Shown: positions 10,743 to 52,853, counted from the first letter of the stretch. The stretch is DNA of 64,000 nt from Pseudomonadota bacterium (GCA_051749645.1 JBNJIT010000004.1:89158-153157); one strand, 5' to 3'. Program-made: numbers and translations. Notes: generated from the letters alone by a model not told the origin.

Positions 10743-12437
10743 CTATCCGTCGAGCCGGCGCTGGGGCTCGCCGCGGGCCGGGGCGTTGCCCGCCACATAG
10801 TAGGGGGCGTCGCTTTTCGACAGCCGCTCGCGGCCGCGGACGCGATCGGCGATCTTCTCGGCGAGCATGATCGTCGGCGCGTTGAGGTTGCCGGTGGGGA
10901 TCAGCGGGAAGAGCGAGGCATCCACCACCCGCAGGCCCTCTACGCCGTGTACCCGGCCCTGGCCGTCCACCACGGCATCGTCGCCCTCGCCCATGCGGCA
11001 GCTGCCGCAGGGGTGGTAGGCAGTCTCGGCGTGGGCACGCACGAAGGCGTCCAGCTCGGCGTCGGAGGCCACGTCCGGCCCCGGCGAGATCTCCCGGCCG
11101 CGGTAGGGGTCGAAGGCGGGCTGGGCGATGATCTCCCGGGTCAGGCGGATGGCGTCGCGGAACTCCTGCCAGTCCTTGTCGGTGGACATGTAGTTGAACA
11201 GGATGCTCGGCGCCGCCTCGGGATCTTGGGAGGTGAGGCGGATGCGCCCGCGGCTCTCCGAGCGCATGGAGCCGACGTGGGCCTGGAAGCCGTGGGCCTG
11301 CACCGCGCTCTTGCCGTTGTAGCTGATGGCGATGGGCAGGAAGTGGTACTGCAGGTTGGGCCACTCTTCCTGGTCATTGGAGCGGATGAAGCCACACGCC
11401 TCGAACTGGTTGCTGGCGCCGATGCCGGTGCCGAGGAACAGCCATTCGGCGCCGATCTTCGGCTGGTTGTACCACTTCAACGCCGGGTAGAGGGAGATCG
11501 GCTGCGTGCACTCGTACTGGATATACATCTCCAGGTGGTCCTGGAGATGGGCGCCGACGTTGTCGTTGACGTGCACCGCCTGGATGCCGAACTCGTCGAG
11601 CACGTCCTTGGGGCCCACACCGGAGCGCTGCAGGATCTGCGGCGAGGCGATGGCACCGGCGCACAGCAGCACTTCGCGGCGGGCACGGACCTGCCGTGGC
11701 TGGCCCTTGTGCGTATAGCGCACGCCTGTGGCGCGTTTGCCTTCGAATTCGATGACGTCGGTGGTGGCACGGGTCTCGATGGTCAGGTTCTCGCGCCCCT
11801 TGGCCTGGTCCAGGTAGCCGCGGGCGGTGGAGGCACGCCGGCCCTTGGGGGTGACGAAACGGTCCATGGGGCCGAAGCCCTCCTGTCGGTAACCGTTGAC
11901 GTCCTCGGTCTCCGGGTAGCCGGCCTGCTTGCCCGCCTCGATGAAGGTGCGGTAAAGGGGGTTGTTGTCGTCTTTCGGCGTGGTGACGTCGATTGGCCCG
12001 CTATCGCCATGGTAGGCGTTGCCACCGATGTCGCGTCGCTCGGACTTCTTGAAGTAGGGCAGACAGTCGGCGTAGGTCCAGTCTTCGAGGCCCGTTGCCT
12101 TGGCCCAGTTGTCGTAGTCCAGTGCGTTGCCGCGGATGTAGCACATGCCGTTGATCAGCGAGGAGCCGCCCAGGCCCTTGCCCCGGCCGCACTCCATGCG
12201 CCGGCCGTCCATGTGGGGCTCGGGGTCGGTCTCGAAGGCCCAGTTGTAGCGCTTGCCCTGCAGCGGATAGGCGAGCGCCGCCGGCATCTGGGTGCGGAAG
12301 TCGAAGCGGTGGTCGGGGCCGCCGGCTTCCAGCAGCAGCACCTGTACGTCCGGGTCTTCGGTGAGCCGGGCGGCGAGCACGTTGCCGGCGGAGCCGGCGC
12401 CGATGATGACGTAGTCGAATTCGCGAAGCTGGGACAT
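10743..12437 (-). CDS. betA: Choline dehydrogenase
   Basis: GMC oxidoreductase: [40 protein letters not shown]; downstream of betB. Confidence 0.96.
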
Positions 12438-12506
12438 GGCGGTTTCCCAAAAAATTGAAACGGAGGTGGCGTCGGGCGTCAGAACCCCAGTCCGCGGCTG
12501 ATCCGT

Positions 12507-12593
12507 GGACAGGTCTACGAGGGGGCGCTATGAATCCCTCCTTGGACGCTACCGATGCCATCCCTGGCATCGGACCCCCTCTATGACCTGTCC
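12507..12593. mobile_element. MITE/REP-like element, 87 bp, with terminal inverted repeats and an internal hairpin
   Basis: GGACAGGTC-TAC-GAGGGGG ... CCCCCTC-TAT-GACCTGTCC termini; internal CCGATGCCA-TCCC-TGGCATCGG; partial second copy at 10664. Confidence 0.5.
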
Positions 12594-12632
12594 CCGGCGC
12601 CGCTCATCTTGGTGGCCGCAACACGACTCACG

Positions 12633-12653
12633 GCTCGTGGCTCGAGGCCCGTG
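12633..12653. repeat. Three degenerate heptamers (minus strand CACGGGC CTCGAGC CACGAGC)
   Basis: Immediately 3' of the betB stop; same units as at 23192-23247. Confidence 0.6.
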
Positions 12654-12655
12654 AC

Positions 12656-14125
12656 TTAGAACACCGACTCGAAGGGGCCCATCTCGATCTGCACCGACTT
12701 GGTCTGGGTGTAGTGGGCAAGCGTCTCGAGGCCGTTCTCGCGGCCCACGCCGGACTGCTTGTAGCCGCCCACCGGCATCTCGGCGGGGGATTCGCCCCAG
12801 GTGTTGATCCAGCAGATGCCAGCCTGCAGGCGATGGATCACCCGGTGGGTGCGGTTGAGACTTTCGGTGAACAGGCCGGCGGCAAGACCGTAGTGGGTGG
12901 CGTTGGCGCGGCGAATCACTTCCTCTTCGTCACCGAAGGCGAGGACTGCCATTACCGGGCCGAAGATTTCCTCGCGTACGATGCGCATCTCGTCGGTGCA
13001 GTCGGTGAACACCGTGGGCGCCGCCCAGGCGCCTTTTGCCCGCTCGCCCTGATTCCAAGCGTCTCCGCCGGCCAGCAGCGTGGCACCCTCCTGCTTGCCA
13101 AGCTCGATATAGGAGAGCACCTTGGCCTGGTGCTCGAAGCTCACCAGTGGGCCGAAATTGACGCTCGGGTCCAGCGGGTCGCCGGCCTTGATGCGTGCCA
13201 CGCGCTCGGCGATCTTCGCTTCGAAGTCCGCCTTGACGGCATCCTCGACGAAGACCCGGGTACCGTTGGTGCAGATCTGCCCGCTGGAGTAGAAGTTGGC
13301 CATCATGGCGGCGTCGGCGGCGCGGTCGAGGTCGGCATCGGCGAACACGATCAGCGGCGACTTGCCGCCCAGTTCCATGGTCACTTCCTTGAGGGTGGAG
13401 CCTCCGGCGGCGGCCATCACCTTCTTTCCGGTGTTCACCTCGCCGGTGAAGGAAACCTTGTCGATGCCGTCATGTTCGGTGAGCATCGCGCCGACCGCGC
13501 CGTCGCCGTGAACGACGTTGAAGACGCCGTCGGGAAGGCCCGCCGCGGTGAAGATCTCGGCCAGCTTCAGGGTAGTGAGCGGGGTGACCTCGCTGGGCTT
13601 GAAGACCACGGCGTTGCCGGCAGCCAGCGCCGGGGCAGCCTTCCAGCAGGCGATCTGGATGGGATAGTTCCAGGCGCCGATGGCACCGATCACGCCCAGC
13701 GGCTCGCGACGGGTGTAGACGAATGAGTCCTCGCGCAGGGGGATCTGGGTGCCCTCGATTGCCGCTGCCAGGCCGGCGTAGTACTCCAGGGCATCGGCAC
13801 CGGTGACGATGTCCACCGCGGCGGTCTCGCTGATCGGCTTGCCGGTGTTGCGCGTTTCGAGCTCGGCGAGTTCATCGTTGCGCTCTCTCAAGATCGCCAC
13901 GGCGCGCTGCAGGATGCGGCCACGCTGCATGCCGCTCATGGCGGCCCAGGCGCGCTGGCCCTCGCGGGCTGCGGCCACGGCGGCGTCTACGTCGGCGGCG
14001 GAAGCCTGCTGTACGCGGGCCAGCACGCTGCCATCGAAGGGGTTGACGACCTCGAAGGTCGTGCCGGAAGTGGCGTCGACAGGGCAGCCGCCGATGTAGA
14101 GAGTTTGGATGTCGAGCTGTGCCAT
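12656..14125 (-). CDS. betB: Betaine aldehyde dehydrogenase
   Basis: [24 protein letters not shown] and EEIFGPV motifs; real start MAQLDIQ at 14125 with RBS GGAGG. Confidence 0.96.
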
Positions 14126-14169
14126 GAGGCCTCCTGTTCGGGCCAGGTCGGTGTGCGGAAGGTGATGGC

Positions 14170-14787
14170 TCAAGCGCCGTCCGGGTCGTAAGCCGCCACC
14201 TCGTGGCCGGCGAGCAGCTGGTCCAGCGCCGCATGCGCCAGGCGGCTGGCCTTGTCGGCATCCAGCTTGCCGGGCGTGAGGGCACCGCGCAGCCAGAGCC
14301 CGTCGATCACGGCGGCCAGGCCCGCTGCTGCACGGTGAGCATCGTCGCGGGGCATGAGACGCCGGAACTGGTGGCACAGGTTGGAGTGCAACCGGCGATG
14401 GTTCACCTGTTGAAGCCGCGCCAGGCGCGGCTTGTGCATGCTGCTGGCCCAGAAGGCGAGCCAGGTCTTGGCCACGGCGCTGGTGACCTGGCTGCGGTCG
14501 AAGTTGCCATCGATGATAGCGCCGAGGTGGGCTCGGGCGCTGGTGTCCTCGAGCGACTGGCGACGTGCGGCCACCGCGTTTCCCAGGTCGTGGAGGATCT
14601 GGCGCATGGTCGCTTCCAGCAGACCGTCCTTGCCGCCGAAATAGTGGCTGATGATCCCCGCCGAAACGCCGGCATGGCGGGCAATGCGCATGACGGTGGT
14701 ATCCGCCAGGCCGACTTCGTCGATAGCGACCATCGTGGCCTGGATCAACTGCTGTCGACGGATGGGTTCCATTCCGACCTTGGGCAC
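14170..14787 (-). CDS. betI: Choline-responsive TetR-family repressor
   Basis: GTG start giving [15 protein letters not shown]; [10 protein letters not shown] and IDGLWLRG motifs; RBS AGGAG. Confidence 0.95.
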
Positions 14788-14861
14788 CTGCGCACTCCTG
14801 TTAGCGGTTTCTGTCTTGCAACCACACCTGTAGACGTGGTTACCATGTGCACAGCTTGCCA

Positions 14862-14889
14862 TTTCTTTATTGAACGTTCAATCAAGAAA
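14862..14889. promoter_or_regulatory. BetI operator
   Basis: TTTCTT-T-ATTGAACGTTCAAT-C-AAGAAA near-perfect 28-bp palindrome between divergent betI and choX; core matches the known BetI box. Confidence 0.85.
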
Positions 14890-14951
14890 GGGCAGTCGTG
14901 AGCCTGGCGCCACGGCTATACTCAAGTGGCCAACCGAAAAGGGGAACTCCG

Positions 14952-15917
14952 ATGAACAAGACGAACCTGTCGACTCTCACCGCTTTGGGCATGGGTGCCG
15001 TTGCCATGGGGCTAGCAGCCTCACCGCAGGCAGCCGACGAACCCGAGAGCTGTAGTACCGTTCGCTTTGCTGAAGTGGGCTGGACCGATATCACCGCCAC
15101 CACGGCGCTGACCACCGAAGTGCTGGAGGCGATGGGCTACGATACCCGCATCGATACCGTCTCCGTGCCCATCGCTTATTCCGGCATGAAGAATGGCGAT
15201 TTCGATGTCTTCCTGGGGAACTGGATGCCTTCCATGGCCTCGATCAGCGATCCCTACATCGAGGATGGCGACGTCGACCGCCTGAGTGCCAACCTCGAGG
15301 GTGCCAAGTACACCCTGGCCGTACCGCAGTACGTCTATGACGCCGGTGTCACCTCGGTGGAAGACTTGGCCGAGCACGCCGATGAGTTCGACAGCGCCAT
15401 TCACGGCATCGAAGCCGGCAACGATGGCAACGAACTGATCCAGCAGATGATCGACGATGATGCCTTTGACCTGGGCGATTGGCAGTTGGTCGACTCTAGC
15501 GAGGCGGGCATGCTGGCCGAGCTGCGCGCTCGGGTGCCGGACGAAACATGGATGGTGTTCCTGGGTTGGGAACCGCATCCCATGAATACCAACTTCGACA
15601 TGGCTTACCTGGAGGGCGCCGACGACTACTTCGGCCCCAATCTGGGCGGCGCCACCGTCTACACCAACACCCGCGGCGGTTACGTCGGGGAGTGTGGCAA
15701 CGTCGGCACCCTGCTGGACAATCTTGAGTTCACTCTGGAGATGGAGAACCAGCTGATGGGCGAGATCATGGATGAGGGTGAAGACCCCCGCGATGCTGCC
15801 CGCGCTTATTTGCAGGCCAACCCCGAGGTACTGGATGACTGGCTCGAAGGCGTGGAGACCCGTGACGGCGAGCCGGCGCTGCCGGCGGTGAAGGCCGAAC
15901 TCGGACTCGAAGGCTGA
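14952..15917 (+). CDS. choX: Choline ABC transporter substrate-binding protein
   Basis: Signal peptide; VGWTDITATT, FLGNWMP, GIEAGNDGN and FLGWEPHPMN motifs. Confidence 0.88.
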   Translation: MNKTNLSTLTALGMGAVAMGLAASPQAADEPESCSTVRFAEVGWTDITATTALTTEVLEAMGYDTRIDTVSVPIAYSGMKNGDFDVFLGNWMPSMASISDPYIEDGDVDRLSANLEGAKYTLAVPQYVYDAGVTSVEDLAEHADEFDSAIHGIEAGNDGNELIQQMIDDDAFDLGDWQLVDSSEAGMLAELRARVPDETWMVFLGWEPHPMNTNFDMAYLEGADDYFGPNLGGATVYTNTRGGYVGECGNVGTLLDNLEFTLEMENQLMGEIMDEGEDPRDAARAYLQANPEVLDDWLEGVETRDGEPALPAVKAELGLEG

Positions 15918-37167: not shown

Positions 37168-37197
37168 CCCGACGGTCGCCACTTCGAGGGCCCTACC

Positions 37198-38316: not shown

Positions 38317-38325
38317 GGAGGAGAC

Positions 38326-39249: not shown

Positions 39250-40043
39250 ACAAGCGATCCTTCCGGCGTGCACTGACTGGCATCTGGTGGCTGACGCTGC
39301 TGTTCCTCTACTTGCCGCTGGCTGTGGTGGTACTGTTCTCCTTCAATGCAGCCAACAGTGCGGCCAGCTTCACCGGCTTCTCCTTGCGCTGGTACGAGCG
39401 CCTACTGGGCAATGAAGAGATTCTCTCGGCCTTTGCCAACAGCATGATCCTGGCCATCGTCTCCTCGGTGGTGGCGCTGGGCATCGGCTGTCTCATCGGT
39501 TATGGCATGTACCGTCATCGCCATCGCAAGCTCGGCTGGCTGATCGTGCTGATCTACCTGCCCATCGTGTTGCCGGATATCGTCTTCGGCATTTCCGAGA
39601 TGGCCTTTTTCGTGCAGATCCACCGACTGACCGGATTCCTGCAGCCGGGGCTGGGCACCATGATCATTGCCCACGTCACCTTCCAGATCCCCTTCGTGGC
39701 GCTGATCGTCTATTCGCGCTTCGTCGGGCTCGACCCGGCGCTGTTCGAGGCGGCCAAGGATCTCTACGCCTCGCCGGTCAAGCGAGCGGTGCACTTCATG
39801 CTGCCGACCATCAAGCCAGCGTTGATCTCGGCGTCCTTCCTCTCCTTTACCTTGTCGGTGGATGACTTCGTCATCAGCTTCTTCACCGCCGGACCGGAGA
39901 GCGCCACCCTGCCCATCTATATCTGGGGGGCGATCAAGAAGGGGGTCTCTCCCGAGATCAATGCCGTTGCCACCCTGATGCTCGGTGCCGTGGCGATCGC
40001 CGCCATTGCGAGCCTACTGTTCAGCCGTCGCCGGCCGGCCTGA
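39246..40043 (+). CDS. potC: Polyamine ABC transporter permease (PotC-like)
   Basis: ATG at 39246; YLPL...FSFN, SLRWY, EAAKDL, SVDDFVIS and SPEINA motifs. Confidence 0.85.
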   Translation: MNKRSFRRALTGIWWLTLLFLYLPLAVVVLFSFNAANSAASFTGFSLRWYERLLGNEEILSAFANSMILAIVSSVVALGIGCLIGYGMYRHRHRKLGWLIVLIYLPIVLPDIVFGISEMAFFVQIHRLTGFLQPGLGTMIIAHVTFQIPFVALIVYSRFVGLDPALFEAAKDLYASPVKRAVHFMLPTIKPALISASFLSFTLSVDDFVISFFTAGPESATLPIYIWGAIKKGVSPEINAVATLMLGAVAIAAIASLLFSRRRPA

Positions 40044-40083
40044 GCCGGCACTCAATGACCCAAGGGGAAACGAGGAGAGCACT

Positions 40084-41148: not shown

Positions 41149-41203
41149 GCGAGCGGCTCCCGGTCTCGGCCGGGAGCCCGCCAATTTCCGCAAGGACAAC
41201 CCC

Positions 41204-42571
41204 ATGAGTGACTCACAGGATCGGCCGGTCCTCAACGACTGGTTTCAGTCGCACGGCATCACCGAAGTCGAATGCCTGGTCAGCGACCTGACCGGGATTC
41301 TCAAGGGCAAGATCATGCCCGCCGGCAAGTACCTCAACGGCGGGCGTCCGCGTCTGCCCGACTCGATCTTCATCCAGACCGTCACCGGTGGCTATCCAGA
41401 CGACGAGGACATCCGCTTCTGGAATCCCGCCGAGCGGGACATGGAGCTGGTGCCCGATCTCAACGCCATCTATCTCGTGCCCTGGGCCGATGACCCGACG
41501 GCACAGATCATTCACGACTGCCACTATCTCACCGGCGAACCGGTGGAGCTGGCGCCGCGTCACGTGCTCAAGCGAGTGCTGGAGTTCTATGCCGCGCGTG
41601 GCTGGAAGCCGGTGGTCGCTCCCGAGGTGGAGTTCTACCTGGTCAAGACCAATACCGACTCCGACTATCCGCTGGAACCGCCCATCGGACGCACCGGGCG
41701 CCAGGAGAGCAGCCGGCAGTCCTTCTCCATCGATGCGGTCAACGAATTCGACCCGCTGTTCGAGGAGATGTACGACTACTGCGAGGCCATGGATCTCGAT
41801 CTCGACACCCTGATCCACGAAGAGGGAGCCGGGCAGATGGAGGTCAACTTTCAGCATGGCGATCCCCTGCAGCTGGCCGACCAGGTGGTGATGTTCAAGC
41901 GCATCCTGCGTGAAACGGCGCTGCGTCACGGCATGTATGCCACCTTCATGGCCAAGCCCATGGCCAATGAGCCGGGCAGTTCCCTGCATATCCATCAGAG
42001 CCTGGTGGACAAGCAGACGGGCAACAACCTCTTCGCCGGCGAGGGCGATCAACCCAGTTCGCTTTTCCATCATTACCTGGGTGGCTTGCAGCGCTATCTG
42101 CCGGCGGCAATGCCGCTGCTGGCTCCCAACGTCAACTCCTACCGGCGCCTGATGCGTGGCGAAACCAGCGGGTCGGCGCCGATCAACGTCGAATGGGGGC
42201 TCGACAACCGCACCGTCGGCCTGCGTGTGCCCGTATCGCCACCGGCTGCCACGCGCATCGAGAACCGCCTGGCCGGGGCCGACGCCAACCCTTACCTGGC
42301 TATTGCCGCCTCCCTGGCGTGCGGCTATCTGGGCATGCTGGGCCAGCTCGAGCCGCGCCCGCCAATGCTGGGGTCGGCCTGGTCCGGCGGCAACAAGCTG
42401 CCCGACGACGTCGGCCCCGCGCTGGACGACCTGCGCGACTGCAAGGCGCTTGCCGACGTGCTGGGCGAGCGATTCGTCAACAGCTACCTGGCAGTCAAGC
42501 GTGCCGAGCATAGGGCGTACTTCCAGGTGATCAGTTCCTGGGAGCGAGAGCACCTGCTGCTGCGGGTCTGA
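41204..42571 (+). CDS. Glutamine-synthetase-like gamma-glutamylpolyamine ligase (PuuA/PauA-like)
   Basis: SDLTGILKGK, PEVEFY, HEEGAGQMEVN, TFMAKP, NRTVGLRVP and GADANPYL motifs; start at 41204 with RBS AAGGA. Confidence 0.88.
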   Translation: MSDSQDRPVLNDWFQSHGITEVECLVSDLTGILKGKIMPAGKYLNGGRPRLPDSIFIQTVTGGYPDDEDIRFWNPAERDMELVPDLNAIYLVPWADDPTAQIIHDCHYLTGEPVELAPRHVLKRVLEFYAARGWKPVVAPEVEFYLVKTNTDSDYPLEPPIGRTGRQESSRQSFSIDAVNEFDPLFEEMYDYCEAMDLDLDTLIHEEGAGQMEVNFQHGDPLQLADQVVMFKRILRETALRHGMYATFMAKPMANEPGSSLHIHQSLVDKQTGNNLFAGEGDQPSSLFHHYLGGLQRYLPAAMPLLAPNVNSYRRLMRGETSGSAPINVEWGLDNRTVGLRVPVSPPAATRIENRLAGADANPYLAIAASLACGYLGMLGQLEPRPPMLGSAWSGGNKLPDDVGPALDDLRDCKALADVLGERFVNSYLAVKRAEHRAYFQVISSWEREHLLLRV

Positions 42572-42657
42572 GCGGTGCTGGACATGGTCCAGGTGTCCGG
42601 AGACGGTTAGACAGTGCCTTCTTGTAGACGAATACAGACGCAATCGAGGAAGTCGAT

Positions 42658-43950
42658 ATGACGGCAACGGCGGCCACCGATCACGTGGCGTCCTGGTATG
42701 CGGCCACGGCCAACCCCGCACCGGAGCGGCCTGCACTGACAGATGACATCGACTGCGACGTTTGCGTGGTCGGGGCGGGCTTTACCGGGATTTCGGCGGC
42801 GCTGCATCTTGCCGAGCAGGGCCTCTCGGTAGTGGTGCTTGAAGCGGCCCGCGTGGGGTTTGGCGCGTCCGGTCGCAATGGCGGGCAGATCGTCAATAGC
42901 TACAGTCGCGATATGGACGTGATCGAGGTGAAGTACGGTGCCGAGACCGCTCGTGCCTTGGGCGACATGGCTTTCGAAGGCAACCGCATCATTCGCGATC
43001 GCGTCGCTCGTTATGGAATCGATTGCGATCTGCGTGACGGCAATCTCTTCGCTGCCTGCAACGCCAAGCAGCTGCACGGACTGCGCGAGCACAAGGCACT
43101 GTGGGAACGCTACGGCTACACCGAGCTGGAGCTGCTGGAAGGCGAGGCCGTCAAGCGGGAAGTCGACTCGGAGCGCTACAGCGGCGCCCTGGTCGATCAT
43201 GGTGGCGGTCACCTGCATCCGCTCAACCTGGTGCTGGGCCAGGCCGAGGCATTGGAATCGCTGGGCGGTCGCATTTACGAACGGTCACCCGTGACCGGCA
43301 TCGACCATGGCGAACCGGTGGTCGTGCATACGCCATCAGGTCGGATCAAGGCCGAGCGGGTGGTGATGGCCGGCAATGCCTATCTCAAGGGCGTGCTGCC
43401 CGAGATCGAGGGCCAATCGATGCCCTGCGGCACTCAGATCGTCACCACCGAACCGCTCGGCGAGGCCCGCGCCCGAGCTCTGATCCCCAATGGTCTGGCG
43501 GTGGAGGACTGCAACTACCTGCTGGACTATTATCGTCTGACCCGTGACAACCGCCTGCTCTACGGTGGCGGGGTCAACTACGGTGGCGACGACCCCAGCG
43601 ACATCGAAAGCGTCATTCGGCCCAAGATGCTCAAGACCTTTCCGTCACTGGCCGACGTCAAGGTCGAGTACGCCTGGAGTGGCACCTTCCTGATGACGCT
43701 CAACCGCCTGCCGCAGTTCGGCGTGATCAACGGCAACGTCTATTATGCCCAGGGCTATTCCGGCCACGGCGTGACCTGCACGCACCTCGCCGGCAAGCTG
43801 ATAGCCGAGGTGATCGAGGGGCGCAGCGAGCGCTTCGATGCCTTCGCCGGCCTGCCTCACCTGCCGTTCCCTGGCGGGCGCCTGCTGCGCGTTCCTCTGT
43901 CGGCGCTGGGGGCCTGGTACTACCAGGCCCGCGATCGCCTCGGCATCTAG
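42658..43950 (+). CDS. puuB: Gamma-glutamylputrescine oxidase-like FAD oxidoreductase
   Basis: DHVASWYAATA, GAGFTG, GASGRNGGQ, MPCGTQIVTTEPL and QGYSGHG motifs. Confidence 0.85.
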   Translation: MTATAATDHVASWYAATANPAPERPALTDDIDCDVCVVGAGFTGISAALHLAEQGLSVVVLEAARVGFGASGRNGGQIVNSYSRDMDVIEVKYGAETARALGDMAFEGNRIIRDRVARYGIDCDLRDGNLFAACNAKQLHGLREHKALWERYGYTELELLEGEAVKREVDSERYSGALVDHGGGHLHPLNLVLGQAEALESLGGRIYERSPVTGIDHGEPVVVHTPSGRIKAERVVMAGNAYLKGVLPEIEGQSMPCGTQIVTTEPLGEARARALIPNGLAVEDCNYLLDYYRLTRDNRLLYGGGVNYGGDDPSDIESVIRPKMLKTFPSLADVKVEYAWSGTFLMTLNRLPQFGVINGNVYYAQGYSGHGVTCTHLAGKLIAEVIEGRSERFDAFAGLPHLPFPGGRLLRVPLSALGAWYYQARDRLGI

Positions 43951-44104: not shown

Positions 44105-45838
44105 TCAGAACAAGCCGACGATCTCGCCGTCGTCGTCGATGTCGATGCGTGAGGCAGCGGGTTCGGCGCTGAGACCCGGCATAGTGCGAATTTCGCCGCA
44201 TAGCGCGTAGACGAAGCCGGCGCCGGCGGAGAGGCGCACCTCGCGCACCGGCAGCAACCAGCCGGTGGGCGCTCCCAGCAGTGTCGGATCGGCGGAGAGC
44301 GACAGGTGACTCTTGGCGATGCACACCGGAAGGTGGCCGTGGCCCTGGGCCTGGAACGCCTCGAGTTGCTGACGGGCCTGGGGCGCGAGCTCGATGCCAT
44401 CGGCACCGTAGATCCGCGTGGCGATGCGTTCGATCTTGTCGGCGAGCGGCAGCGCATCCGGGTAGAGGAATCGGAAGTCGCTACCGGCATCGGCTGCCTC
44501 GGCGACCGCCTCTGCCAGCTCCACGGCTCCGGCGCCGCCATCTCGCACGTGGGTGGAGACTGCCGCGCGTACGCCCGCTGCCGCGGCGATGTCGTGGATG
44601 ATGGCGTGTTCGCTGGGGTAGTCCGTCGGGAAGGCATTGATGGCCACCACCGGGGTGATGCCGTGCGCGCGGATATTGTCGATCTGCTTGACCAGGTTGC
44701 TGGCGCCGGCCTGCACGTCCTGCGGGCTTTCGTCCTGCATCGCGGCCGGCAGGGGGTGGCCGGGGCGCACCGTGTGCCGGCCCGAGTGGTACTTGAGCGC
44801 GCGTACCGTGACGACCAGAACGGCAGTGTCGGGTGTGAGCCCTGAGCTGCGGCATTTGATGTTGAAGAAGCGTTCCGCCCCCATGTCCGCACCGAAGCCT
44901 GCCTCGGTGACCAGGTAGTCGCTGCCGTGGATGCCGAAGCGGTCGGCGACGATCGACGAGTTGCCGTGGGCGATGTTGCCGAAGGGGCCGGCGTGGATCA
45001 GCGCTGGGGCATGCTCTAGCGTTTGCAGCAGGTTGGGCTTGATCGCCTCCTTGAGCAGGACGGTCATGGCGCCGGCCGCACCGATGTCGTCGGCGGTGAC
45101 CGGCTCGCCGTCGCGGGTCTCGCCCACCACCATGCGGCCGAGCCGCTGGCGCAGGTCCGCCAGGGAGTCGGCCAGGGCGAGCACTGCCATGACCTCGGAG
45201 GCGGCGGTGATCTCGAAGCCGCTCTGGCGTGTCACGCCATCGCCGCGCCCGCCAAGGCCGGTGACGATGTGGCGCAAGGCGCGGTCGTTGAGATCCAGCA
45301 CGCGCGACCAGCACACCGAGCGAGGGTCGAGATCGACCCCGCGGCGCTGGTGGAGATGGTTGTCGATCATTGCGGCGAGCAGGTTGTGCGCCGCCGTGAC
45401 GGCATGAATGTCGCCGGTCAGATGTAGATTGATGCGCTCCATGGGCACTACCTGACTGAGCCCGCCGCCGGCGGCACCGCCCTTGAGCCCCAGGGTGGGG
45501 CCAAGGGAGGGTTGGCGTATGGCCACCGTGGCCCCATGGCCCAGCTGCTGCAGACCCTGGACGAGACCGATGGCGGTAGTGGTCTTGCCCTCGCCCAGGG
45601 GCGTGGGGGTGATCGCCGAAACCACCACGTAGCGGCCACGTGAGCGGCACTCGAGATCGCTCAGTGCGCCCAGGTCGAGCTTGGCCACACCGCGACCGTA
45701 GGGCTCCACGGCATCGCCGGGCACGCCCAGCCGATGGGCGATCTCCTCAATGGGCCACAGCCGTGCCTGTCGCGCGATGCTGAGATTGTCCTGCATGGGA
45801 GGTGTTGCTGTGGACAGTGCCTGGGGTTCGGGGGCCAT
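44105..45838 (-). CDS. fhs: Formate-tetrahydrofolate ligase
   Basis: TPTPLGEGKTT, KGGAAGGG, HAGPFGNIAHG, EAGFGADMG and TMPGL motifs; start 45838 has RBS AGGAG. Confidence 0.95.
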   Translation of the reverse strand: MAPEPQALSTATPPMQDNLSIARQARLWPIEEIAHRLGVPGDAVEPYGRGVAKLDLGALSDLECRSRGRYVVVSAITPTPLGEGKTTTAIGLVQGLQQLGHGATVAIRQPSLGPTLGLKGGAAGGGLSQVVPMERINLHLTGDIHAVTAAHNLLAAMIDNHLHQRRGVDLDPRSVCWSRVLDLNDRALRHIVTGLGGRGDGVTRQSGFEITAASEVMAVLALADSLADLRQRLGRMVVGETRDGEPVTADDIGAAGAMTVLLKEAIKPNLLQTLEHAPALIHAGPFGNIAHGNSSIVADRFGIHGSDYLVTEAGFGADMGAERFFNIKCRSSGLTPDTAVLVVTVRALKYHSGRHTVRPGHPLPAAMQDESPQDVQAGASNLVKQIDNIRAHGITPVVAINAFPTDYPSEHAIIHDIAAAAGVRAAVSTHVRDGGAGAVELAEAVAEAADAGSDFRFLYPDALPLADKIERIATRIYGADGIELAPQARQQLEAFQAQGHGHLPVCIAKSHLSLSADPTLLGAPTGWLLPVREVRLSAGAGFVYALCGEIRTMPGLSAEPAASRIDIDDDGEIVGLF

Positions 45839-45910
45839 GAGGGGTCTCCTGATGCCGGTTGCGGTAGGCGTGCGCCTCGTTTCAGTATTTTCGCCATGAG
45901 CCATCGCCGT

Positions 45911-45947
45911 TTGTGCGCAGGCGTCAACCGGCTTGGTCGCAGCGACA
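45911..45947 (-). promoter_or_regulatory. Tandem GlxA/ArgR-type operator upstream of fhs
   Basis: Minus strand TGTCGC-N8-AG-N5-TGACGC-N8-AA (21-bp period); -10-like AATACT starts at 45889. Confidence 0.6.
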
Positions 45948-46052
45948 CCGGTGCGATGTCTCTGCAGGTGGGGCGGTTGACGTGGCTATGCAACTTGGTG
46001 CCATATTCATTGTCGTTTAACCAGAACGGCGAGATGGCTCCGGGAGGCGAGC

Positions 46053-47096
46053 ATGGAACCCCACGAGTTGCCGGGCGATGGCCAATACGACATCGGGTTC
46101 CTGTTGATCCCGGGGTTCTCCCAGTTGGCGTTCTCCTCGGCGCTGGAGCCGCTGCGGATGGCCAATCACCTCACCGAGCGGCGGCTCTATCGCTGGCATC
46201 TGCTGAGCCGTGACGGTAAACCGGTCACGGCCAGCAGCGACTTGGCGACCGGCGTCGACGCTGCCCTGTCTTCGGCTCCAAGCCTCGATCTGGTGGTGGT
46301 GTGTGCCGGCGTTGAGGTGCAAAGCCATTGCGATCGCGACACTCTGCAGTGGCTACGGCGCCAGGCCGGTCGGCACCTGCCGCTGGGAGCCGTGTGTACC
46401 GGAGGCTACGTGCTGGCCCAGGCGGGGCTGCTCGACGGCTATCGCTGCACCCTGCACTGGGAGCACATATCTAGCCTCCATGAAGCCCTGCAGTTTCCCC
46501 GTGTGACCTTCTGCTCGCAGCTCTTCGTGCTCGACCGGGATCGCTACACCTGTTCGGGCGGCATTGCGCCGCTGGACATGATGCTCACCTTGATTGCCCG
46601 TCAGCAGGGGCTGGGGCTGGCCGAGGCCATCGCCGAGGAGTTCATCCACGAGCGCATTCGTGGCGTGGGCGATCGCCAGCGCAATCCGCTGCGCGTGCGC
46701 CTGGGTCATAGCCACCCCAAGCTGGAGGAGGTGGCCACGCTGATGGAAGCCAATCTTCAGGAGCCGCTCACCCTCGACGAACTGGCCAGCCACGCCGATC
46801 TCTCGCGGCGCCAGCTGGAGCGGCTGTTTCAGCGCTACGTCGACTGTCCGCCTCTGAAGTACTACATGGACCTGCGCTTGATGCGGGCTCGCCAGCTGCT
46901 GCGCCAGACCCACATGCCGATCACCGACGTGGCCATGGCGTGCGGCTTCGTTTCTCCACCGCACTTCACCAAGAGCTATCGAGACCACTTCGGTCATTCG
47001 CCAAGCCGCGAACGGGAGCGTAGACGCGATCGCGAAGCGGCCGCCCAGGCCGCCAGTCCCCTGTTATCGCACTCTCCGGCCGATCATACCGAGTGA
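46053..47096 (+). CDS. GlxA-family AraC regulator (DJ-1/PfpI + HTH; GbdR/SouR-like)
   Basis: SALEPLRMAN, GAVCTG, TLHWEH, TCSGG and LSRRQLERLF motifs. Confidence 0.92.
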   Translation: MEPHELPGDGQYDIGFLLIPGFSQLAFSSALEPLRMANHLTERRLYRWHLLSRDGKPVTASSDLATGVDAALSSAPSLDLVVVCAGVEVQSHCDRDTLQWLRRQAGRHLPLGAVCTGGYVLAQAGLLDGYRCTLHWEHISSLHEALQFPRVTFCSQLFVLDRDRYTCSGGIAPLDMMLTLIARQQGLGLAEAIAEEFIHERIRGVGDRQRNPLRVRLGHSHPKLEEVATLMEANLQEPLTLDELASHADLSRRQLERLFQRYVDCPPLKYYMDLRLMRARQLLRQTHMPITDVAMACGFVSPPHFTKSYRDHFGHSPSRERERRRDREAAAQAASPLLSHSPADHTE

Positions 47097-47099
47097 GGC

Positions 47100-49667
47100 T
47101 CAGCTGCGGGGGCGCAGGTTCTCCGGGTCGTAGAGCGGGCGATACCCCACGGCGGCCACCCGCAGCGGGTAGTGCTCGCCGAAGTACTCCATGATCAGGG
47201 CGTTGCCTTCCCTGGCATCGCCCTCCGGCAGGTAACCCAGAGCGATGACTTTCTCCACCGAGGGGCCGTAGGCGATGCTGGTCACGTAGGAACGGCGTCT
47301 CACGCTGTCGATCAGTACGTCGCCGCTGGCCGGGTCGAGGATAGGGGCATGGCCGACCGGGAAACGTGGCGTTCCCGCGGCGTCGCGATTCTCCTCCATG
47401 ACCAGGGTGCACAGATAGGCGGGCTGCCGGTCGCGTTCGCGCTGAGCGAGATAGGCCGCCTTGCCGTGGAAGTCCGCCGCCTTGACCTTGGGGCGGGCCA
47501 GTCCCGCCTCGTAGAGATTGTATTCGGTGAGCAGGTCGACGTTCTGCAGCCGCAGGCTCTTCTCCAGACGCCGGCTGTTGGCGTAGGTCTCGACGCCCAC
47601 CGGAGTCACGCCCTGCTCATGGAGAAGATCCCAGAGCGCGAGCCCGTAGCTGAAGGGGACGTAGAGCTCCCAGCCCTGTTCGCCCACGTAGGAGATGCGG
47701 AAGGCCCACACCGGCAGGCCGCGAACGCGAATCTCGCGGGCCGTGGCGAAGGGGAAGCGCTCGTCGTCGAGTTCCTCGGGGGCGTCGGCGACGGCCTGCA
47801 GCGTGCGTCTGGCGTTGGGACCCCACAGCCCCAGAGTGGCCAGGCTGTCAGTGCGGTCCTCGACGTGCAGACCCTCGAGCCCGCGGGCCTGGGCCATGCG
47901 CGTCATCCACACGAGGTCACGATGGCCGGTGTCGCCGCCGCAGATCACCCGGTAGCGGTCGTTGCCCAGGCGGACGATGGTGAGATCGCCGTGCACGCCG
48001 CCCCATTCATCCAGGAAATGGGTGTAGACGCCCTTGCCGGTCGGGGTGTCGCCGCCGACCTTGGCGACCGAGAGGTATTCCAGCAGGGCCTCGGCGTCCG
48101 GGCCGGAGACGTCGTAGATGGCGAAGTGGGAGAGATTGATCATGCCCACGTCGTCGGAAAGCGCCAGGTGCTCGGCGTTGGAGACGCGCCAGAAGTGGCG
48201 GCCGTCCCACTCGTCGAGTCGCTCGGGTATGCGCTCGGCGTAGCGCTCCAGCAGTGGCTCGTTGGCCGCGTAGCCGTGGGCGCGTTCCCAGCCGGCGGCT
48301 TCCATGAAGTGGCCGCCGAGCTCCCGCTCGCGGGGCCAGAAGGGGCTGCGCCGGAGGTTGCGGCCACTCTCGAAGGGTTCGCGAGGGTGCACCGGTGGGT
48401 CGTAGATCTTCCTGGCGATCTCCTGGCAGCGCCCGTACACGTAGTCGGGTGTCTTCTGTACCGGATAGAAACGGGCGATGTCGATGCCGTGGGGGTCGAG
48501 CTCCGGCTTGCCCCGGGTGAGCCAGTCGGCGAGTACCTTGCCCATCCCCGGGCCGTCCTTGACCCACACCGCTTCGCAGAACCACAGCCCGCGGGTCTCG
48601 GGGGACTCGCCGACCAGTGAGCCGCCGTCGTTGGTGACGGAGAGCAGACCGTTGAAGGAGTGCTTTTCGTCCCAGCCCAATTCGCCGAGCGCGGGGGTCA
48701 GTTCGATGGCGCGCTCGAAGGCGTCCATGACCTGATCCAGCTCGAGATCGCGCATGGAGGGCGACAGCCGTGCCTGGTGCCGCTCGAGGATGTCCTGGGG
48801 AGGGACGAGTCTGGGCGAGTGGGCCTCGTAGTAGCCCCACTCGAGCTGACCGCCTTCGGTGCTGGATGGGTCGCCGGTATCGCGCAGGTAGGCGGAGTTG
48901 CCCTGGTCGCGCAATAGCGGGTAGCCGATCTCCAGGCCAGTGCCGGCAAAGGTGTCGAAGGGGCCGAAGAAGAGCAATGGATGCTCGACGGGCATCAATG
49001 GCAGGGCGGCGCCGCCCATGGCGGCGGGAATCGGTCCCCAGATGCCGGAGGTGACGATGACCACCGACGTGGCGATATAGCCCTTGGCAGTCTCCACGCC
49101 ATGAATGCGACCGTTGCGTACGTCGATGCTCAGCGCTGGGGTATCGGCGAAGGCCTTCAGGGCTCCCGATGCCACCGCCCGCTCCACCAGTTCGCCGGCG
49201 ACCTGCTGCGAGCGCGGCACGACCAGGCCGGCGTCGGGGTCCCACATCGCTCCCTGGATCAGGTTGCGGTCCAGCAGTGGAAAGCGTTCGGCGGCCTCGG
49301 CGGCACTGATCATGCGCACGTTGGTGCCGAAGGCTTTGCCCGAAGCGACCTTGCGCTTGAGCTCAGCCAGGCGGGCATCGTCGCCGACGCGCGCCACCTC
49401 CAGGCCGCCGATTCGCTGGTAGCGGCCCATCCGCTCATAGAAGCGCTGGCTGTAGGTGGTGGTGTAGCACGACATCTTGTCGTGGGAGGTCATGTAGCAG
49501 AAGTCGGAGGCGTGGGACGTCGAGCCGATATCCGAGGGGATCGACGACTTGTCGAGGCCGACCAGGTCGTCCCAGCCCTGCTCGATCAGGTGGTGGGCCA
49601 CCGAAGCGCCGACGATGCCGCCCTGGCCGATGATGACCGCGCGTGCCTGCTGGGGTAATGCCGCCAT
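47100..49667 (-). CDS. Dimethylglycine oxidase/dehydrogenase-like flavoprotein (FAD domain + GcvT folate domain)
   Basis: GQGGIVG dinucleotide fold, GSTSHA flavinylation-type His, VEHP, RLEKS and SIAYGPSV motifs; start MAALPQQ with RBS AGGAGG. Confidence 0.8.
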   Translation of the reverse strand: MAALPQQARAVIIGQGGIVGASVAHHLIEQGWDDLVGLDKSSIPSDIGSTSHASDFCYMTSHDKMSCYTTTYSQRFYERMGRYQRIGGLEVARVGDDARLAELKRKVASGKAFGTNVRMISAAEAAERFPLLDRNLIQGAMWDPDAGLVVPRSQQVAGELVERAVASGALKAFADTPALSIDVRNGRIHGVETAKGYIATSVVIVTSGIWGPIPAAMGGAALPLMPVEHPLLFFGPFDTFAGTGLEIGYPLLRDQGNSAYLRDTGDPSSTEGGQLEWGYYEAHSPRLVPPQDILERHQARLSPSMRDLELDQVMDAFERAIELTPALGELGWDEKHSFNGLLSVTNDGGSLVGESPETRGLWFCEAVWVKDGPGMGKVLADWLTRGKPELDPHGIDIARFYPVQKTPDYVYGRCQEIARKIYDPPVHPREPFESGRNLRRSPFWPRERELGGHFMEAAGWERAHGYAANEPLLERYAERIPERLDEWDGRHFWRVSNAEHLALSDDVGMINLSHFAIYDVSGPDAEALLEYLSVAKVGGDTPTGKGVYTHFLDEWGGVHGDLTIVRLGNDRYRVICGGDTGHRDLVWMTRMAQARGLEGLHVEDRTDSLATLGLWGPNARRTLQAVADAPEELDDERFPFATAREIRVRGLPVWAFRISYVGEQGWELYVPFSYGLALWDLLHEQGVTPVGVETYANSRRLEKSLRLQNVDLLTEYNLYEAGLARPKVKAADFHGKAAYLAQRERDRQPAYLCTLVMEENRDAAGTPRFPVGHAPILDPASGDVLIDSVRRRSYVTSIAYGPSVEKVIALGYLPEGDAREGNALIMEYFGEHYPLRVAAVGYRPLYDPENLRPRS

Positions 49668-49746
49668 GCTCCTCCTCCTGGTGTGCCGCCTGGGTTGGCC
49701 GTCGCTGTCACTATTCAAGCTAATGCACCCAGCCTGCGATTGCTGT

Positions 49747-49779
49747 CCAGCGACGACTTGCATTTGCATCGTGACGACA
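49747..49779 (-). promoter_or_regulatory. Tandem operator facing the flavoprotein gene
   Basis: Minus strand TGTCGT-N8-AA-N5-AGTCGTCGCTGG; -10-like TAGCTT starts at 49722. Confidence 0.65.
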
Positions 49780-49805
49780 GCGTGAGGCAAAGCGTCGGCA
49801 TGCAC

Positions 49806-49838
49806 TGTCGCTGGCGCCAAAGTCGCTGTCGTCGCTGG
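49806..49838 (+). promoter_or_regulatory. Tandem operator facing the DmdA-like gene
   Basis: TGTCGC-N8-AA-N5-TGTCGTCGCTGG; -10-like TAGCTT at 49864. Confidence 0.65.
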
Positions 49839-50004
49839 TGCCATGGCAGTGGCCAGTGAGCATTAGCTTTACATCAGGGTAGCGCGTTTGCGCGCCTCGG
49901 AGGTCGTCGCAGTCGATCAGTGTCACGTCCGACAGCCTCCTGGCATTCATTCGATTTCGCCTCGCCGCCGGTGCGTTCCGTGGGGCGGGCAAGGAGCGGC
50001 AATC

Positions 50005-51201
50005 ATGTCCCAGGCCATCGAGAGCATTCAGCACACCCAGGCGGCGCCGGAGATCCTGCTCTATCCGCGTATTCGCAAGTCGCCGTTCTTCTATGCCTCG
50101 CGGCGGCATGGAGTGCGCAAGTACAGCGTCTACAACCACCACTACCACCCGCGCCTCTACACCGATCCGGTGGATGAGTACTGGGCGCTGGTGGAGGGCG
50201 TCACCCTGTGGGACGTGGGAGTGGAGCGCCAGATCGAGATCAGCGGCCCGGATGCCTTCGCCTTCACCCAGCGCTTGGTGCCCCGCGACATGCGCCAGTG
50301 TCAGGTGGGGCAGTGCAAATACGTCTTCGTCACCGCCCCCGACGGCGGCATCATCAACGACCCGGTGCTGTTGCGCATCGAGGAGAATCGTTTCTGGCTG
50401 TCGCTGGCGGACAGCGACGTGCTGCTGTGGTGCCAGGGGTTGGCCTACCATTCCGACCTCGACGTCACCCTCCGGGAGGTCGATGTGGCCCCGGTCCAGG
50501 TTCAGGGGCCCAAGGCCAAGGCGGTGATGGTCGACCTGTTCGGTGAGGCCGTGCTGTCGATGCCCTATTACCATCTGATGGAAGCCGAACTCGACGGCAT
50601 GTCGGTGGTGATCTCGCGCACCGGTTACTCCGGCGAAATCGGCTACGAGATCTATCTGCGCGAGGCGAGCCGCCACGGGGAAGCGCTGTGGCAGCGGGTC
50701 TTCGAGGCGGGGAGGCCCCATGACATGCAGGTGATCGGCCCCTGCCACATCCGACGCATCGAGGGGGGGATCCTCGCTTTCGGCTGCGACATCTGGTACG
50801 ACACCAACCCCTTCGAAGTGGGCATGGGTTATGACTGGATGGTCGACCTGCGTGGCGACGATGACTTCATCGGTCGCGCTGCGCTAGAGCGTATCAAGGC
50901 CGAAGGGGTTTCGCGCAAATTGGTGGGAGTGGAAATCGACGGTCCCAGCGTCGGCTACTTCACCGACGGTGCCATGATCGACGTCTTCCCGGTCCTCGAT
51001 AGTGCCGGCACGCGTATCGGCCAGGTGACCTCGGCCACCCGTTCACCGCGGCAGGAGCGCAATATCGGCTATGCCATGGTGCCGATCGAGCATAGCGAGT
51101 TGGGCACGCCGCTGCGCATCGAGGCCAATACTGGCCTGCAGGAAGCGCGGGTGGTTTCCAAGCCGTTCCACGACCCCAGCAAGGCGATTCCCAAGGGGTG
51201 A
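50005..51201 (+). CDS. GcvT-family THF-dependent methyltransferase, DmdA-like
   Basis: YSVYNH, LWDVGVERQIEISGPD, INDPVLLRIEENRFWLSLADSD, VQGP, SRTGYSGEIGYEIY and NPFE motifs; RBS AAGGAG. Confidence 0.8.
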   Translation: MSQAIESIQHTQAAPEILLYPRIRKSPFFYASRRHGVRKYSVYNHHYHPRLYTDPVDEYWALVEGVTLWDVGVERQIEISGPDAFAFTQRLVPRDMRQCQVGQCKYVFVTAPDGGIINDPVLLRIEENRFWLSLADSDVLLWCQGLAYHSDLDVTLREVDVAPVQVQGPKAKAVMVDLFGEAVLSMPYYHLMEAELDGMSVVISRTGYSGEIGYEIYLREASRHGEALWQRVFEAGRPHDMQVIGPCHIRRIEGGILAFGCDIWYDTNPFEVGMGYDWMVDLRGDDDFIGRAALERIKAEGVSRKLVGVEIDGPSVGYFTDGAMIDVFPVLDSAGTRIGQVTSATRSPRQERNIGYAMVPIEHSELGTPLRIEANTGLQEARVVSKPFHDPSKAIPKG

Positions 51202-51212
51202 GCCCCGGTACG

Positions 51213-51233
51213 ACCCCACCGGTGGTGGGGTCA
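51213..51233. terminator. Hairpin between convergent genes
   Basis: GACCCCACC-GGT-GGTGGGGTC. Confidence 0.6.
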
Positions 51234-52607
51234 TACGTGGCGCAGATACCAGTCGTACTCGAGCTTGTTCACCACCTGCATGGCCGCATCGCGCTCGGCG
51301 CGACGGTTGGCCAGGAAGACGGCGAGGAAGTCGTGTCCCAGTGCCGCATTGAGCACGGCACTCCCTTCCAGTAGGTCGAGAGCTCGTTGCCAGCTGTTGG
51401 TGAGGCTGGGGGATACCTGGGCGTAGGCGTTGCCGGTGATGGGGGGCGGCGGTTCGAGCCGATGATCCAGGCCATGCTCGATGCCGGCCAGCAGGGTCGC
51501 CACCAGGAGGTAGGGGTTGGCGTCGGCGCCGGCTACGCGATGTTCGATGCGTCGCGCTCCGTTGGGCCCGGCTGGAACACGCAGTGCGACCGAGCGGTTG
51601 TCGTATCCCCAGGTGGGTGTCATGGGTACGTAGAGGCCCGGCTGGAAACGGCGGTAGGAGTTGAGATTGGGCGCGCAGATGGCCATGCTCGCCGGCATCG
51701 TGGCCAACAGCCCGGCTACGGCATGGTGCAGGCGGGGCGTGCCGAGTGGCTCGCCATCCGGGTCGGCGAAGACGTTGTCGCCGGCCGGGTCGAGCAGGCT
51801 GATGTGCACATGAGTGCCGTTGCCGGCTTCCTGCCCATAGGGCTTGGCCATGAAGGTCGCCTCGAAGCCGTGCCGAAGAGCGACACCCTTGATCAGCCGC
51901 TTGAGCAGCACGGCGCTGTCGCAGGCGGTCAGGGCGTTTGCGCAGTGCACCAGGTTGATCTCGAACTGGCCGGGAGCGCACTCCTTGAGCGCCGTGTCCA
52001 GCGGCAGCCCCTGGATGTCGGCAGCGTGCTGGATCGCCTCGAGAAAGTCGGCGTACTCATCGAGCTCGCTGATCGAGTAGAGCTGGCTCTGAGTGGCGCG
52101 TTCGCCGTTGCCGGGTGACAGCGGCGGCTGGACCATGCCCAAGGCATCCCGGGCGCGATCCACCAGGTAGAATTCCATTTCCACGGCGACCACCGGCGTC
52201 AAGCCGGCGTGCTGAAAACGGGCCAACACGCGAGACAATACCTGGCGAGGGTCGGCAAAGAAGGGGCTGCCGTCGAGCTCGCTCATGGTCATCAACAGCT
52301 GGGCCTGGCGCCCCTCCCGCAGCCAGGGGCTGGGGGCGAGGGTCCCCGGTATGGGGTGACAGACTCGGTCGCCGTCACCGCTCGACAGGCCCAGGCCGGT
52401 TTCCTCGATGGTGTTGCCATTGATGTCCAGCGCGAACACCGACGCCGGCAAGTGGATGCCCTGCTCATACGCCTTGGCGAGGTTGCTGCCTGGCAGCCGC
52501 TTGCCGCGCATCACACCGTTGAGGTCGCTGATCAGCAGGTCGACGCTGTCGATGTCCGGATGCTGCTCGAGAAAGGCATGGGCCTCGGCGACTGGGCGAG
52601 ACGACAT
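51231..52607 (-). CDS. puuA: Gamma-glutamylpolyamine ligase (PuuA-like)
   Basis: SDLNGVMRGKR, AVEMEFYL, ECAPGQFEIN, TFMAKPY, NRSVALRVP and GADANPYL motifs. Confidence 0.85.
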   Translation of the reverse strand: MSSRPVAEAHAFLEQHPDIDSVDLLISDLNGVMRGKRLPGSNLAKAYEQGIHLPASVFALDINGNTIEETGLGLSSGDGDRVCHPIPGTLAPSPWLREGRQAQLLMTMSELDGSPFFADPRQVLSRVLARFQHAGLTPVVAVEMEFYLVDRARDALGMVQPPLSPGNGERATQSQLYSISELDEYADFLEAIQHAADIQGLPLDTALKECAPGQFEINLVHCANALTACDSAVLLKRLIKGVALRHGFEATFMAKPYGQEAGNGTHVHISLLDPAGDNVFADPDGEPLGTPRLHHAVAGLLATMPASMAICAPNLNSYRRFQPGLYVPMTPTWGYDNRSVALRVPAGPNGARRIEHRVAGADANPYLLVATLLAGIEHGLDHRLEPPPPITGNAYAQVSPSLTNSWQRALDLLEGSAVLNAALGHDFLAVFLANRRAERDAAMQVVNKLEYDWYLRHV

Positions 52608-52793
52608 GGTGTCACCTGTGCGTGGTTGGCTTTGATGGCTATCTTTCAGTTGCTGTCAGGTGTTGTCAAATCCTTTACGACAGAAAGCTGTTCGTTGCGC
52701 CTGACTGGATCGCTATAGAGCTCTTCGGTGCGCATTGTTTGGGGATTCTTGCAGTTTTTCGTGACGAGTTGGCAATCGGCATTTGGGGCTGTA

Positions 52794-52812
52794 TGTTGAG
52801 CAAAGTATAACA
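52794..52812. promoter_or_regulatory. Candidate PuuR/PauR operator
   Basis: TGTT-N11-AACA in the AT-rich divergent puuA/spuC region; related TGTTGTC...CGACA at 52661-52682. Confidence 0.3.
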
Positions 52813-52853
52813 TTGCTCCCATGAGTGGCTCGCGCCGAGGAGACTCCACCATC

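Follow-up and report, generated by a model that had tools for sequence, protein, structure and literature searches.

Glycine betaine is among the most abundant osmolytes and methyl carriers of saline and soil habitats, and three ways of removing its first methyl group are known: the Rieske monooxygenase GbcAB/BmoAB, betaine-homocysteine methyltransferase (BHMT) and the corrinoid-dependent MtgB(CD/A) systems, all of which, in net terms, convert betaine to dimethylglycine; many genomes that encode the downstream enzymes have none of the three. Here we describe a block of four genes (positions 44105-51201) in a stretch of 64,000 nucleotides (GCA_051749645.1, JBNJIT010000004.1:89158-153157; ‘the window’), which is a chromosomal piece of a Halomonadaceae genome. 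That the block is a real, conserved and co-regulated unit for demethylation dependent on tetrahydrofolate (THF) we consider close to certain. Its best explanation, which we hold to be the probable one, is that a DmdA-like protein would convert betaine and THF to dimethylglycine and 5-methyl-THF, ahead of a flavoprotein step and of one-carbon oxidation leading to formate-THF ligase (Fhs).

The best sequence relative of the DmdA-like protein is DmdA (EC 2.1.1.269; NCBIfam NF009133; PDB: 3TFH), the demethylase of dimethylsulfoniopropionate (DMSP). The two have in common the GcvT fold and an E/Y motif that binds THF, and the chemistry we propose is also alike: a methyl group leaves an onium centre for N5 of THF with no corrinoid involved; the donor of DmdA, however, is a sulfonium, whereas that proposed for the DmdA-like protein is a quaternary ammonium. 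A second point of comparison is provided by LigM-MetF-LigH of Sphingobium sp. SYK-6, a system for THF-dependent O-demethylation in which a GcvT-family methyltransferase is grouped with a methylenetetrahydrofolate reductase (MTHFR) and a formate-THF ligase; it acts on aryl methyl ethers, and the methyl group is oxidised via the folate pool. The same trio of methyltransferase, MTHFR and Fhs is seen in Saccharopolyspora spinosa, whilst the window has the methyltransferase and Fhs but lacks the MTHFR, and adds a flavoprotein and a GbdR-type regulator; LigM itself matches the DmdA-like protein only faintly (32 bits). GbcAB/BmoAB, BHMT and MtgB, by contrast, belong to unrelated protein families, and the proposed route would run without O2, NADH, homocysteine or cobalamin, although the MtgB systems likewise end in methyl-THF (PMC12478193). 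We found no published description of a GcvT-family betaine:THF methyltransferase, the literature giving the three betaine demethylation systems together with DmdA and LigM, and none of the proposed route.

The four genes are arranged as two divergent pairs:

44105..45838, minus strand: fhs, formate-tetrahydrofolate ligase (577 aa; Pfam FTHFS 811 bits; NCBIfam NF010030 786.7 bits)
46053..47096, plus strand: GbdR-like regulator of the GATase1-like/AraC (GlxA) type (347 aa; Pfam DJ-1_PfpI and HTH_18)
47100..49667, minus strand: dimethylglycine-oxidase-like flavoprotein with a fused THF-binding GcvT domain (855 aa; Pfam DAO, FAO_M, GCV_T and GCV_T_C)
50005..51201, plus strand: DmdA-like GcvT-family protein, candidate betaine:THF methyltransferase (398 aa; Pfam GCV_T and GCV_T_C)

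Gene starts were set by a Shine-Dalgarno sequence followed by ATG (for fhs, GGAGAC and then ATG). All four genes lie where the original prediction had placed them; its outer coordinates, being longest-open-reading-frame limits, put three of the starts too far upstream. The observation is confirmed, and its interpretation as folate-dependent demethylation is supported in part, as set out below.

The four genes behave as one unit: conserved across species, co-inherited in a family-wide sample and, judging by the operators, co-regulated. About 35 Halomonadaceae species, and Arhodomonas sp. SL1 with them, carry the four with order and orientation unchanged, and a gammaproteobacterial metagenome-assembled genome (MAG) has them rearranged; of the loci compared, that of Billgrantia gudaonensis is closest, its DmdA-like protein being 95% identical to that of the window. 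Across 151 genomes, an even sample of the family, 10 have an orthologue of the DmdA-like protein (at least 90% identity), and the set of genomes with this type of fhs (at least 74% identity) consists of precisely those 10, the two genes lying a few kilobases apart wherever they are found on one contig; the co-occurrence in other genomes that had been predicted is thus borne out. Remaining members of the sample have either no fhs or one that is just 51–55% identical to the module copy. The latter, which is the sole fhs of its genome and passes the NF010030 equivalog cut-off (652 bits), is 65–68% identical to the Saccharopolyspora fhs genes that adjoin DmdA-like genes; being closer to these than to the fhs of its own family, it points to transfer of the genes between phyla as a package.

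The regulator resembles GbdR, CdhR and SouR of Pseudomonas aeruginosa in its GATase1-like plus AraC architecture and in its divergent placement beside catabolic genes. It scores 446.3 bits on the NCBIfam GbdR model (NF052371), below the cut-off of 480, and differs from GbdR in this respect, the true GbdR of the genome being a separate gene on another contig (C10; 613.6 bits) that is 53% identical to it. Two further GbdR paralogues score 334.6 and 295.4 bits, such that, of the four scored, the module regulator is the paralogue nearest to the true GbdR (another, weaker GlxA-type paralogue, the fifth, was left out of the scoring), consistent with its earlier assignment as a regulator of GbdR type.

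When the two intergenic regions were compared across 35 species by k-mer conservation and alignment, a conserved bipartite element emerged, TGTCGY-N5-(C)CAA(A)G-N5-GNCGYC. The strict pattern TGTCGY-N16-GWCGYC has three copies in the window and none elsewhere in it, each oriented to one enzyme gene:

45920..45947, minus strand: operator before fhs, TGTCGCTGCGACCAAGCCGGTTGACGCC (pattern match; AATACT begins 30 nt after the operator)
49752..49779, minus strand: operator before the flavoprotein gene, TGTCGTCACGATGCAAATGCAAGTCGTC (pattern match; TAGCTT begins 29 nt after the operator)
49806..49833, plus strand: operator before the DmdA-like gene, TGTCGCTGGCGCCAAAGTCGCTGTCGTC (pattern match; TAGCTT begins 30 nt after the operator)

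Chance would be expected to produce 0.10 copies in the window, and none of 100 shuffles reached three; the pattern was, however, derived from these same sites, so that the independent test is conservation. A slightly relaxed pattern occurs in the correct orientation in 32 of 35 orthologous intergenic regions for fhs, 28 of 35 for the flavoprotein gene and 34 of 35 for the DmdA-like gene, against just 2 of 35 when oriented to the regulator gene and approximately 0.1 of 35 in composition shuffles. The prediction of matching operators in front of all three enzyme genes therefore holds, and extends across species; exact or near-exact 10–14-mers shared between the two intergenic regions of the module were looked for and are absent. 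Genome-wide, the strict form with an inner CAAG or CAAAG is confined to the module, and 37 of the 40 matches found in a scan with the operator pattern (all but the three of the module) look like chance occurrences in coding DNA, so that the scan brought to light neither a wider regulon nor a transporter. RNA-seq runs were sought, and DNA metagenomes alone came up.

CdhR binds sites of the form GGTCGC-N15-GGTCGC, which have been described as very similar to those of GbdR and SouR (PMC5806209). The half-sites and spacing of the module element resemble these direct repeats, with GTCGC-type half-sites about two helical turns apart; binding by the module regulator is predicted. As a -10-like hexamer begins 29–30 nt past each operator, the proximal half-site adjoins the -35 position, from which we infer an arrangement like that of an AraC-type activator. 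We propose that the GbdR-like regulator would bind one such site, 29–30 nt before the -10-like hexamer, at each enzyme promoter, and would switch on the three enzyme genes upon betaine or dimethylglycine.

Turning to the enzymes, the DmdA-like protein scores 334.1 bits on the NCBIfam DmdA model, below the cut-off of 410, and finds its best solved relative in the DmdA of P. ubique (3TFH; 228 bits, 35% identity, E = 1e-66); the alignment spans 359 residues and equates E215 and Y217 with E204 and Y206 of the chain, the conserved folate-binding E/Y motif. The key tryptophan that contacts DMSP in DmdA is W171 (PMC7487153). By our residue mapping its position is taken by Tyr208, which is invariant in a 12-sequence alignment of the DmdA-like family, whose members are 66–71% identical from Halomonas to Actinomycetota. 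Could the protein nevertheless be a genuine DMSP demethylase, and the module a means of breaking DMSP down? DmdA is the closest named family, and halomonads encounter DMSP in their saline habitats; the curated cut-off is nonetheless missed and the key tryptophan replaced, the surroundings are devoid of dmdB, dmdC and dmdD, DMSP breakdown has no use for a flavin amine oxidase, and the family is well represented among soil Actinomycetota and Thermoleophilia, where it is found beside betA, dimethylglycine oxidase and sox genes. We regard the DMSP explanation as highly improbable and, from its score, the Trp-to-Tyr replacement, the lack of dmdBCD context and its occurrence in soil lineages, judge that the DmdA-like protein is not a true DmdA.

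A second DmdA-like family, 50–52% identical to the window protein, was encountered in another Halomonadaceae genome (locus L089:631-11513, genome G147). It too falls below the DmdA cut-off, with 366 bits, and is present in 8 of the 151 sampled genomes of the family; its gene adjoins an ABC transporter, followed by MTHFR, PurU and FolD, an arrangement that we read as a putative parallel module for THF-dependent demethylation. In the genome of the window, FolD and a second MTHFR stand together at a contig edge (C11:789-3521); this MTHFR is 68% identical to that of the L089 locus, and the genome is without a DmdA-like gene of the second family.

Gene neighbourhoods were counted by tblastn with defined queries, the recount being made because picking the longest frame in high-GC DNA gave antisense artefacts. 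The most constant neighbour of the DmdA-like gene is a divergent MTHFR-like gene (roughly 290 aa; Pfam MTHFR 45–52 bits; TIGR00676 54–58 bits), which directly adjoins it in 62 of 80 loci spanning gammaproteobacteria, Actinomycetota, Thermoleophilia and others; among the other Halomonas loci, too, the great majority have the pair side by side. There is reason for an MTHFR to sit next to a GcvT-family enzyme only where that enzyme makes 5-methyl-THF, which argues for methyl-THF chemistry; very likely, in our view, the DmdA-like protein is a methyltransferase that forms methyl-THF and takes its methyl group from an N-methyl onium compound. The same adjacency bears on the possibility that the protein works like a T-protein, forming methylene-THF, for example by capture of the iminium or formaldehyde released by an oxidase or by acting on sarcosine. 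Such a role would suit the motif RTGYSGEIGYEIY, which has Tyr where DmdA has Trp, a position that we take to be Tyr in GcvT also, and it would match all other GcvT-domain enzymes of the pathway, which form methylene-THF. Saying this, an MTHFR partner is needed only for a 5-methyl-THF product, the best relative in sequence and structure is DmdA rather than GcvT, and the partner flavoprotein already has a fused GcvT domain of its own; a T-protein-like function consequently seems to us improbable.

Methyl transfer from an onium compound being the preferred reading, the neighbouring genes also suggest which compound. The S. spinosa locus reads soxA, a GntR regulator, dimethylglycine oxidase, the DmdA-like gene, the MTHFR-like gene and fhs, the oxidase being a true dimethylglycine oxidase orthologue (890 bits to 1PJ5), and soxA is found near the DmdA-like gene in all 13 of 13 Saccharopolyspora and Actinopolyspora loci. 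A Thermoleophilaceae contig has MTHFR-like, DmdA-like and betA genes in a row, with a BetA that, at 819.7 bits on TIGR01810, clears the choline dehydrogenase equivalog cut-off of 732; within the group of loci to which this contig belongs, BetA-like genes occur no more than 10 kb away in 13 of 24, and dimethylglycine-oxidase-like genes and a DgcB-like iron-sulfur protein also recur within 10 kb. Betaine to dimethylglycine is, in this predicted pathway context, the one step left without an enzyme.

Two further observations concern the distribution of the family. Five Solirubrobacterales loci (L061, L067, L068, L072 and L078; ~11200-14100) have, directly downstream of the DmdA-like gene and on the opposite strand, a gene for a DUF294 nucleotidyltransferase with CBS and cNMP-binding domains, which may be a regulator. 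A 2.5 kb contig binned as a Natrialbaceae archaeon MAG (L031) holds a DmdA-like gene 89% identical to the Halomonas copy; a binning error is more likely here than a true archaeal gene.

We also asked which genomes with the DmdA-like family encode another enzyme for the first step. GbcA orthologues (full length, at least 78% identity) are present in just four of 20 such genomes, all of them Halomonadaceae; S. spinosa and one alphaproteobacterial MAG have full-length relatives of 44–45% identity and uncertain function, and the search found no GbcA in Actinopolyspora, two other Saccharopolyspora, Solirubrobacterales, Thermoleophilaceae, both Arhodomonas or Halomonas icarae. MttB-family proteins are absent from 20 of 21 genomes with the family, and five genomes (G003, G006, G007, G008 and G012) also have no stand-alone protein of the homocysteine-methyltransferase domain family PF02574, leaving the DmdA-like protein as the sole first-step candidate in these five. 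The model put forward in the original prediction, in which betaine passes to dimethylglycine by direct methyl transfer to THF and then to the flavoprotein, is hence favoured both by gene context in three phyla and by genomes that have the DmdA-like gene without GbcA, MtgB or a stand-alone BHMT-like gene, whilst keeping the status of a prediction; glycine betaine is, in our estimation, the probable substrate.

Amongst genomes carrying the module, Halomonas halodenitrificans DSM 735 (G017) has a gbcA orthologue interrupted by one in-frame TGA (C2:229195-230463 of that genome), and Halomonas icarae D1-1 (G020) gave no gbcA match.

The flavoprotein, present in single copy in the genome, exceeds the cut-offs of all four of its Pfam domains. 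Its best solved relative is the dimethylglycine oxidase of Arthrobacter globiformis (PDB: 1PJ5; 414 bits over the full length), and the two have the four-domain architecture in common; the relationship is distant, the module flavoprotein, whose putative electron acceptor is O2 or ETF, showing 30–33% identity to actinobacterial dimethylglycine oxidase, as compared with 40–43% to its counterparts neighbouring the Thermoleophilia DmdA-like genes.

Taking these components together, we propose a pathway as follows. The DmdA-like protein would take one methyl group off the quaternary nitrogen of betaine and place it on N5 of THF, yielding dimethylglycine and 5-methyl-THF and requiring neither oxygen nor corrinoid, as with DmdA on DMSP. 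The flavoprotein would next oxidise dimethylglycine to sarcosine, its fused GcvT domain trapping the carbon as 5,10-methylene-THF, and an MTHFR would oxidise 5-methyl-THF to methylene-THF; in most relatives this enzyme would be the product of the dedicated adjoining gene, and here either MetF (contig C2) or the second MTHFR (contig C11) would serve. FolD would then give 10-formyl-THF, from which the module Fhs, working in reverse, would free formate, regenerate THF and gain ATP, with sarcosine passing onward to SoxBDAG, encoded on contig C10. So understood, the block would be a regulated, horizontally mobile catabolic module that delivers the first two N-methyl groups of glycine betaine to the folate one-carbon pool.

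The rest of the genome supplies much of what this scheme calls for. It encodes MetF, the second MTHFR, two FolD and two PurU proteins and an NAD-linked formate dehydrogenase; metF, folD, soxBDAG and gbcAB are all present, at loci outside the module, and MtgB is absent from the genome. The betaine-forming genes said to lie 30 kb away are indeed there: betA, betB and betI occupy 10743..15917 of the window, together with a gene for a divergent OpuAC-type betaine- or choline-binding protein, so that conversion of choline to betaine is encoded 30 kb from the module. Less fortunate was the description of the module as self-contained, as the MTHFR-like partner that adjoins the DmdA-like gene in most related loci is missing, and MetF and FolD must come from other loci. 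Independence from O2 likewise holds for the methyl-transfer step only, as the flavoprotein needs O2 or another electron acceptor.

Several observations weigh against betaine demethylation by this route. The genome already has a complete canonical betaine route, in an island on contig C10 that comprises the true GbdR, an M19 peptidase, dgcA, dgcB, etfBA, a formaldehyde-dehydrogenase-like gene and an NAD-formate dehydrogenase, and further gbcA, gbcB, a SouR-like regulator, glyA and soxBDAG. With gbcAB-dgcAB-etfAB-soxBDAG complete, the module fills no gap and is a second route in this organism rather than the sole one. The dedicated MTHFR-like partner has no homologue elsewhere in the genome, and the module contains no transporter. 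Chemically, a methyl group is less electrophilic on a trimethylammonium than on a sulfonium. The flavoprotein is distant from characterised dimethylglycine oxidase (414 bits, as against 890 for the S. spinosa neighbour) and its substrate could differ. Finally, the comparison of first-step enzymes covers about 20 genomes and uses PF02574 as a crude criterion for BHMT, and the choice of betaine as substrate is drawn entirely from gene neighbourhood.

Some of these points would be accommodated if the same chemistry served another onium osmolyte, be it proline betaine, carnitine or gamma-butyrobetaine, choline, beta-alanine betaine or trigonelline, with the flavoprotein then demethylating the resulting tertiary amine. 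The canonical route already in the genome, a regulator that is a paralogue of GbdR rather than GbdR itself and the divergence of the flavoprotein from dimethylglycine oxidase would all fit such a substrate, as would the second DmdA-like family of other Halomonadaceae (51% identical), which has its own ABC transporter and so indicates that the superfamily has several specificities. Yet the window protein is 66–71% identical to copies that sit between a true dimethylglycine oxidase or betA and an MTHFR-like gene, specificity seldom shifts at that level of identity, and no gene for a different carbon skeleton is conserved beside the DmdA-like gene. We therefore see another osmolyte as a possible but rather unlikely substrate, and retain glycine betaine.

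Outside the module, the DmdA-like stop codon at 51201 lies 30 bp from a convergent glutamine-synthetase-like gene, and polyamine-type catabolic genes flank the block on both sides (window positions 35848-43950 and 51231-55741): upstream a DAO oxidase, an ABC ATPase, a permease, a binding protein, a glutamine-synthetase-like gene and a second DAO, and downstream another glutamine-synthetase-like gene, a class III aminotransferase and an aldehyde dehydrogenase. These were considered as members of the module and rejected; although many Halomonas genomes keep them in synteny, they are missing next to the module in Arhodomonas and in several Halomonas, and other genes are in places inserted between them and the module.

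The DmdA-like family is widespread in halophilic gammaproteobacteria and soil Actinomycetota, with members in more than 595 species-level genomes. We lean, if only slightly, towards the view that it constitutes a fourth and so far undescribed type of first-step enzyme: a single cofactor-free betaine:tetrahydrofolate N-methyltransferase, independent of oxygen and cobalamin, with the MTHFR-like protein and Fhs conserving the methyl group as reducing power and ATP and no release of formaldehyde. In Halomonas it would work alongside the oxygenase and be controlled by a GbdR-like switch of its own, and we may speculate that the module is favoured under oxygen limitation or when energy conservation by Fhs matters. 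The Halomonas version offers the most convenient entry point, its hosts being culturable and genetically tractable and the module having a dedicated regulator and three defined operators; natural module-bearing strains occur both with and without the competing gbcAB route, H. halodenitrificans and H. icarae being natural test strains for the hypothesis. If true, a DmdA-type betaine:THF methyltransferase would close the gap left by genomes that have the downstream enzymes and none of the known first steps, would change the annotation of betaine turnover in metagenomes, and would extend the reach of DmdA-type chemistry from sulfonium to ammonium donors.

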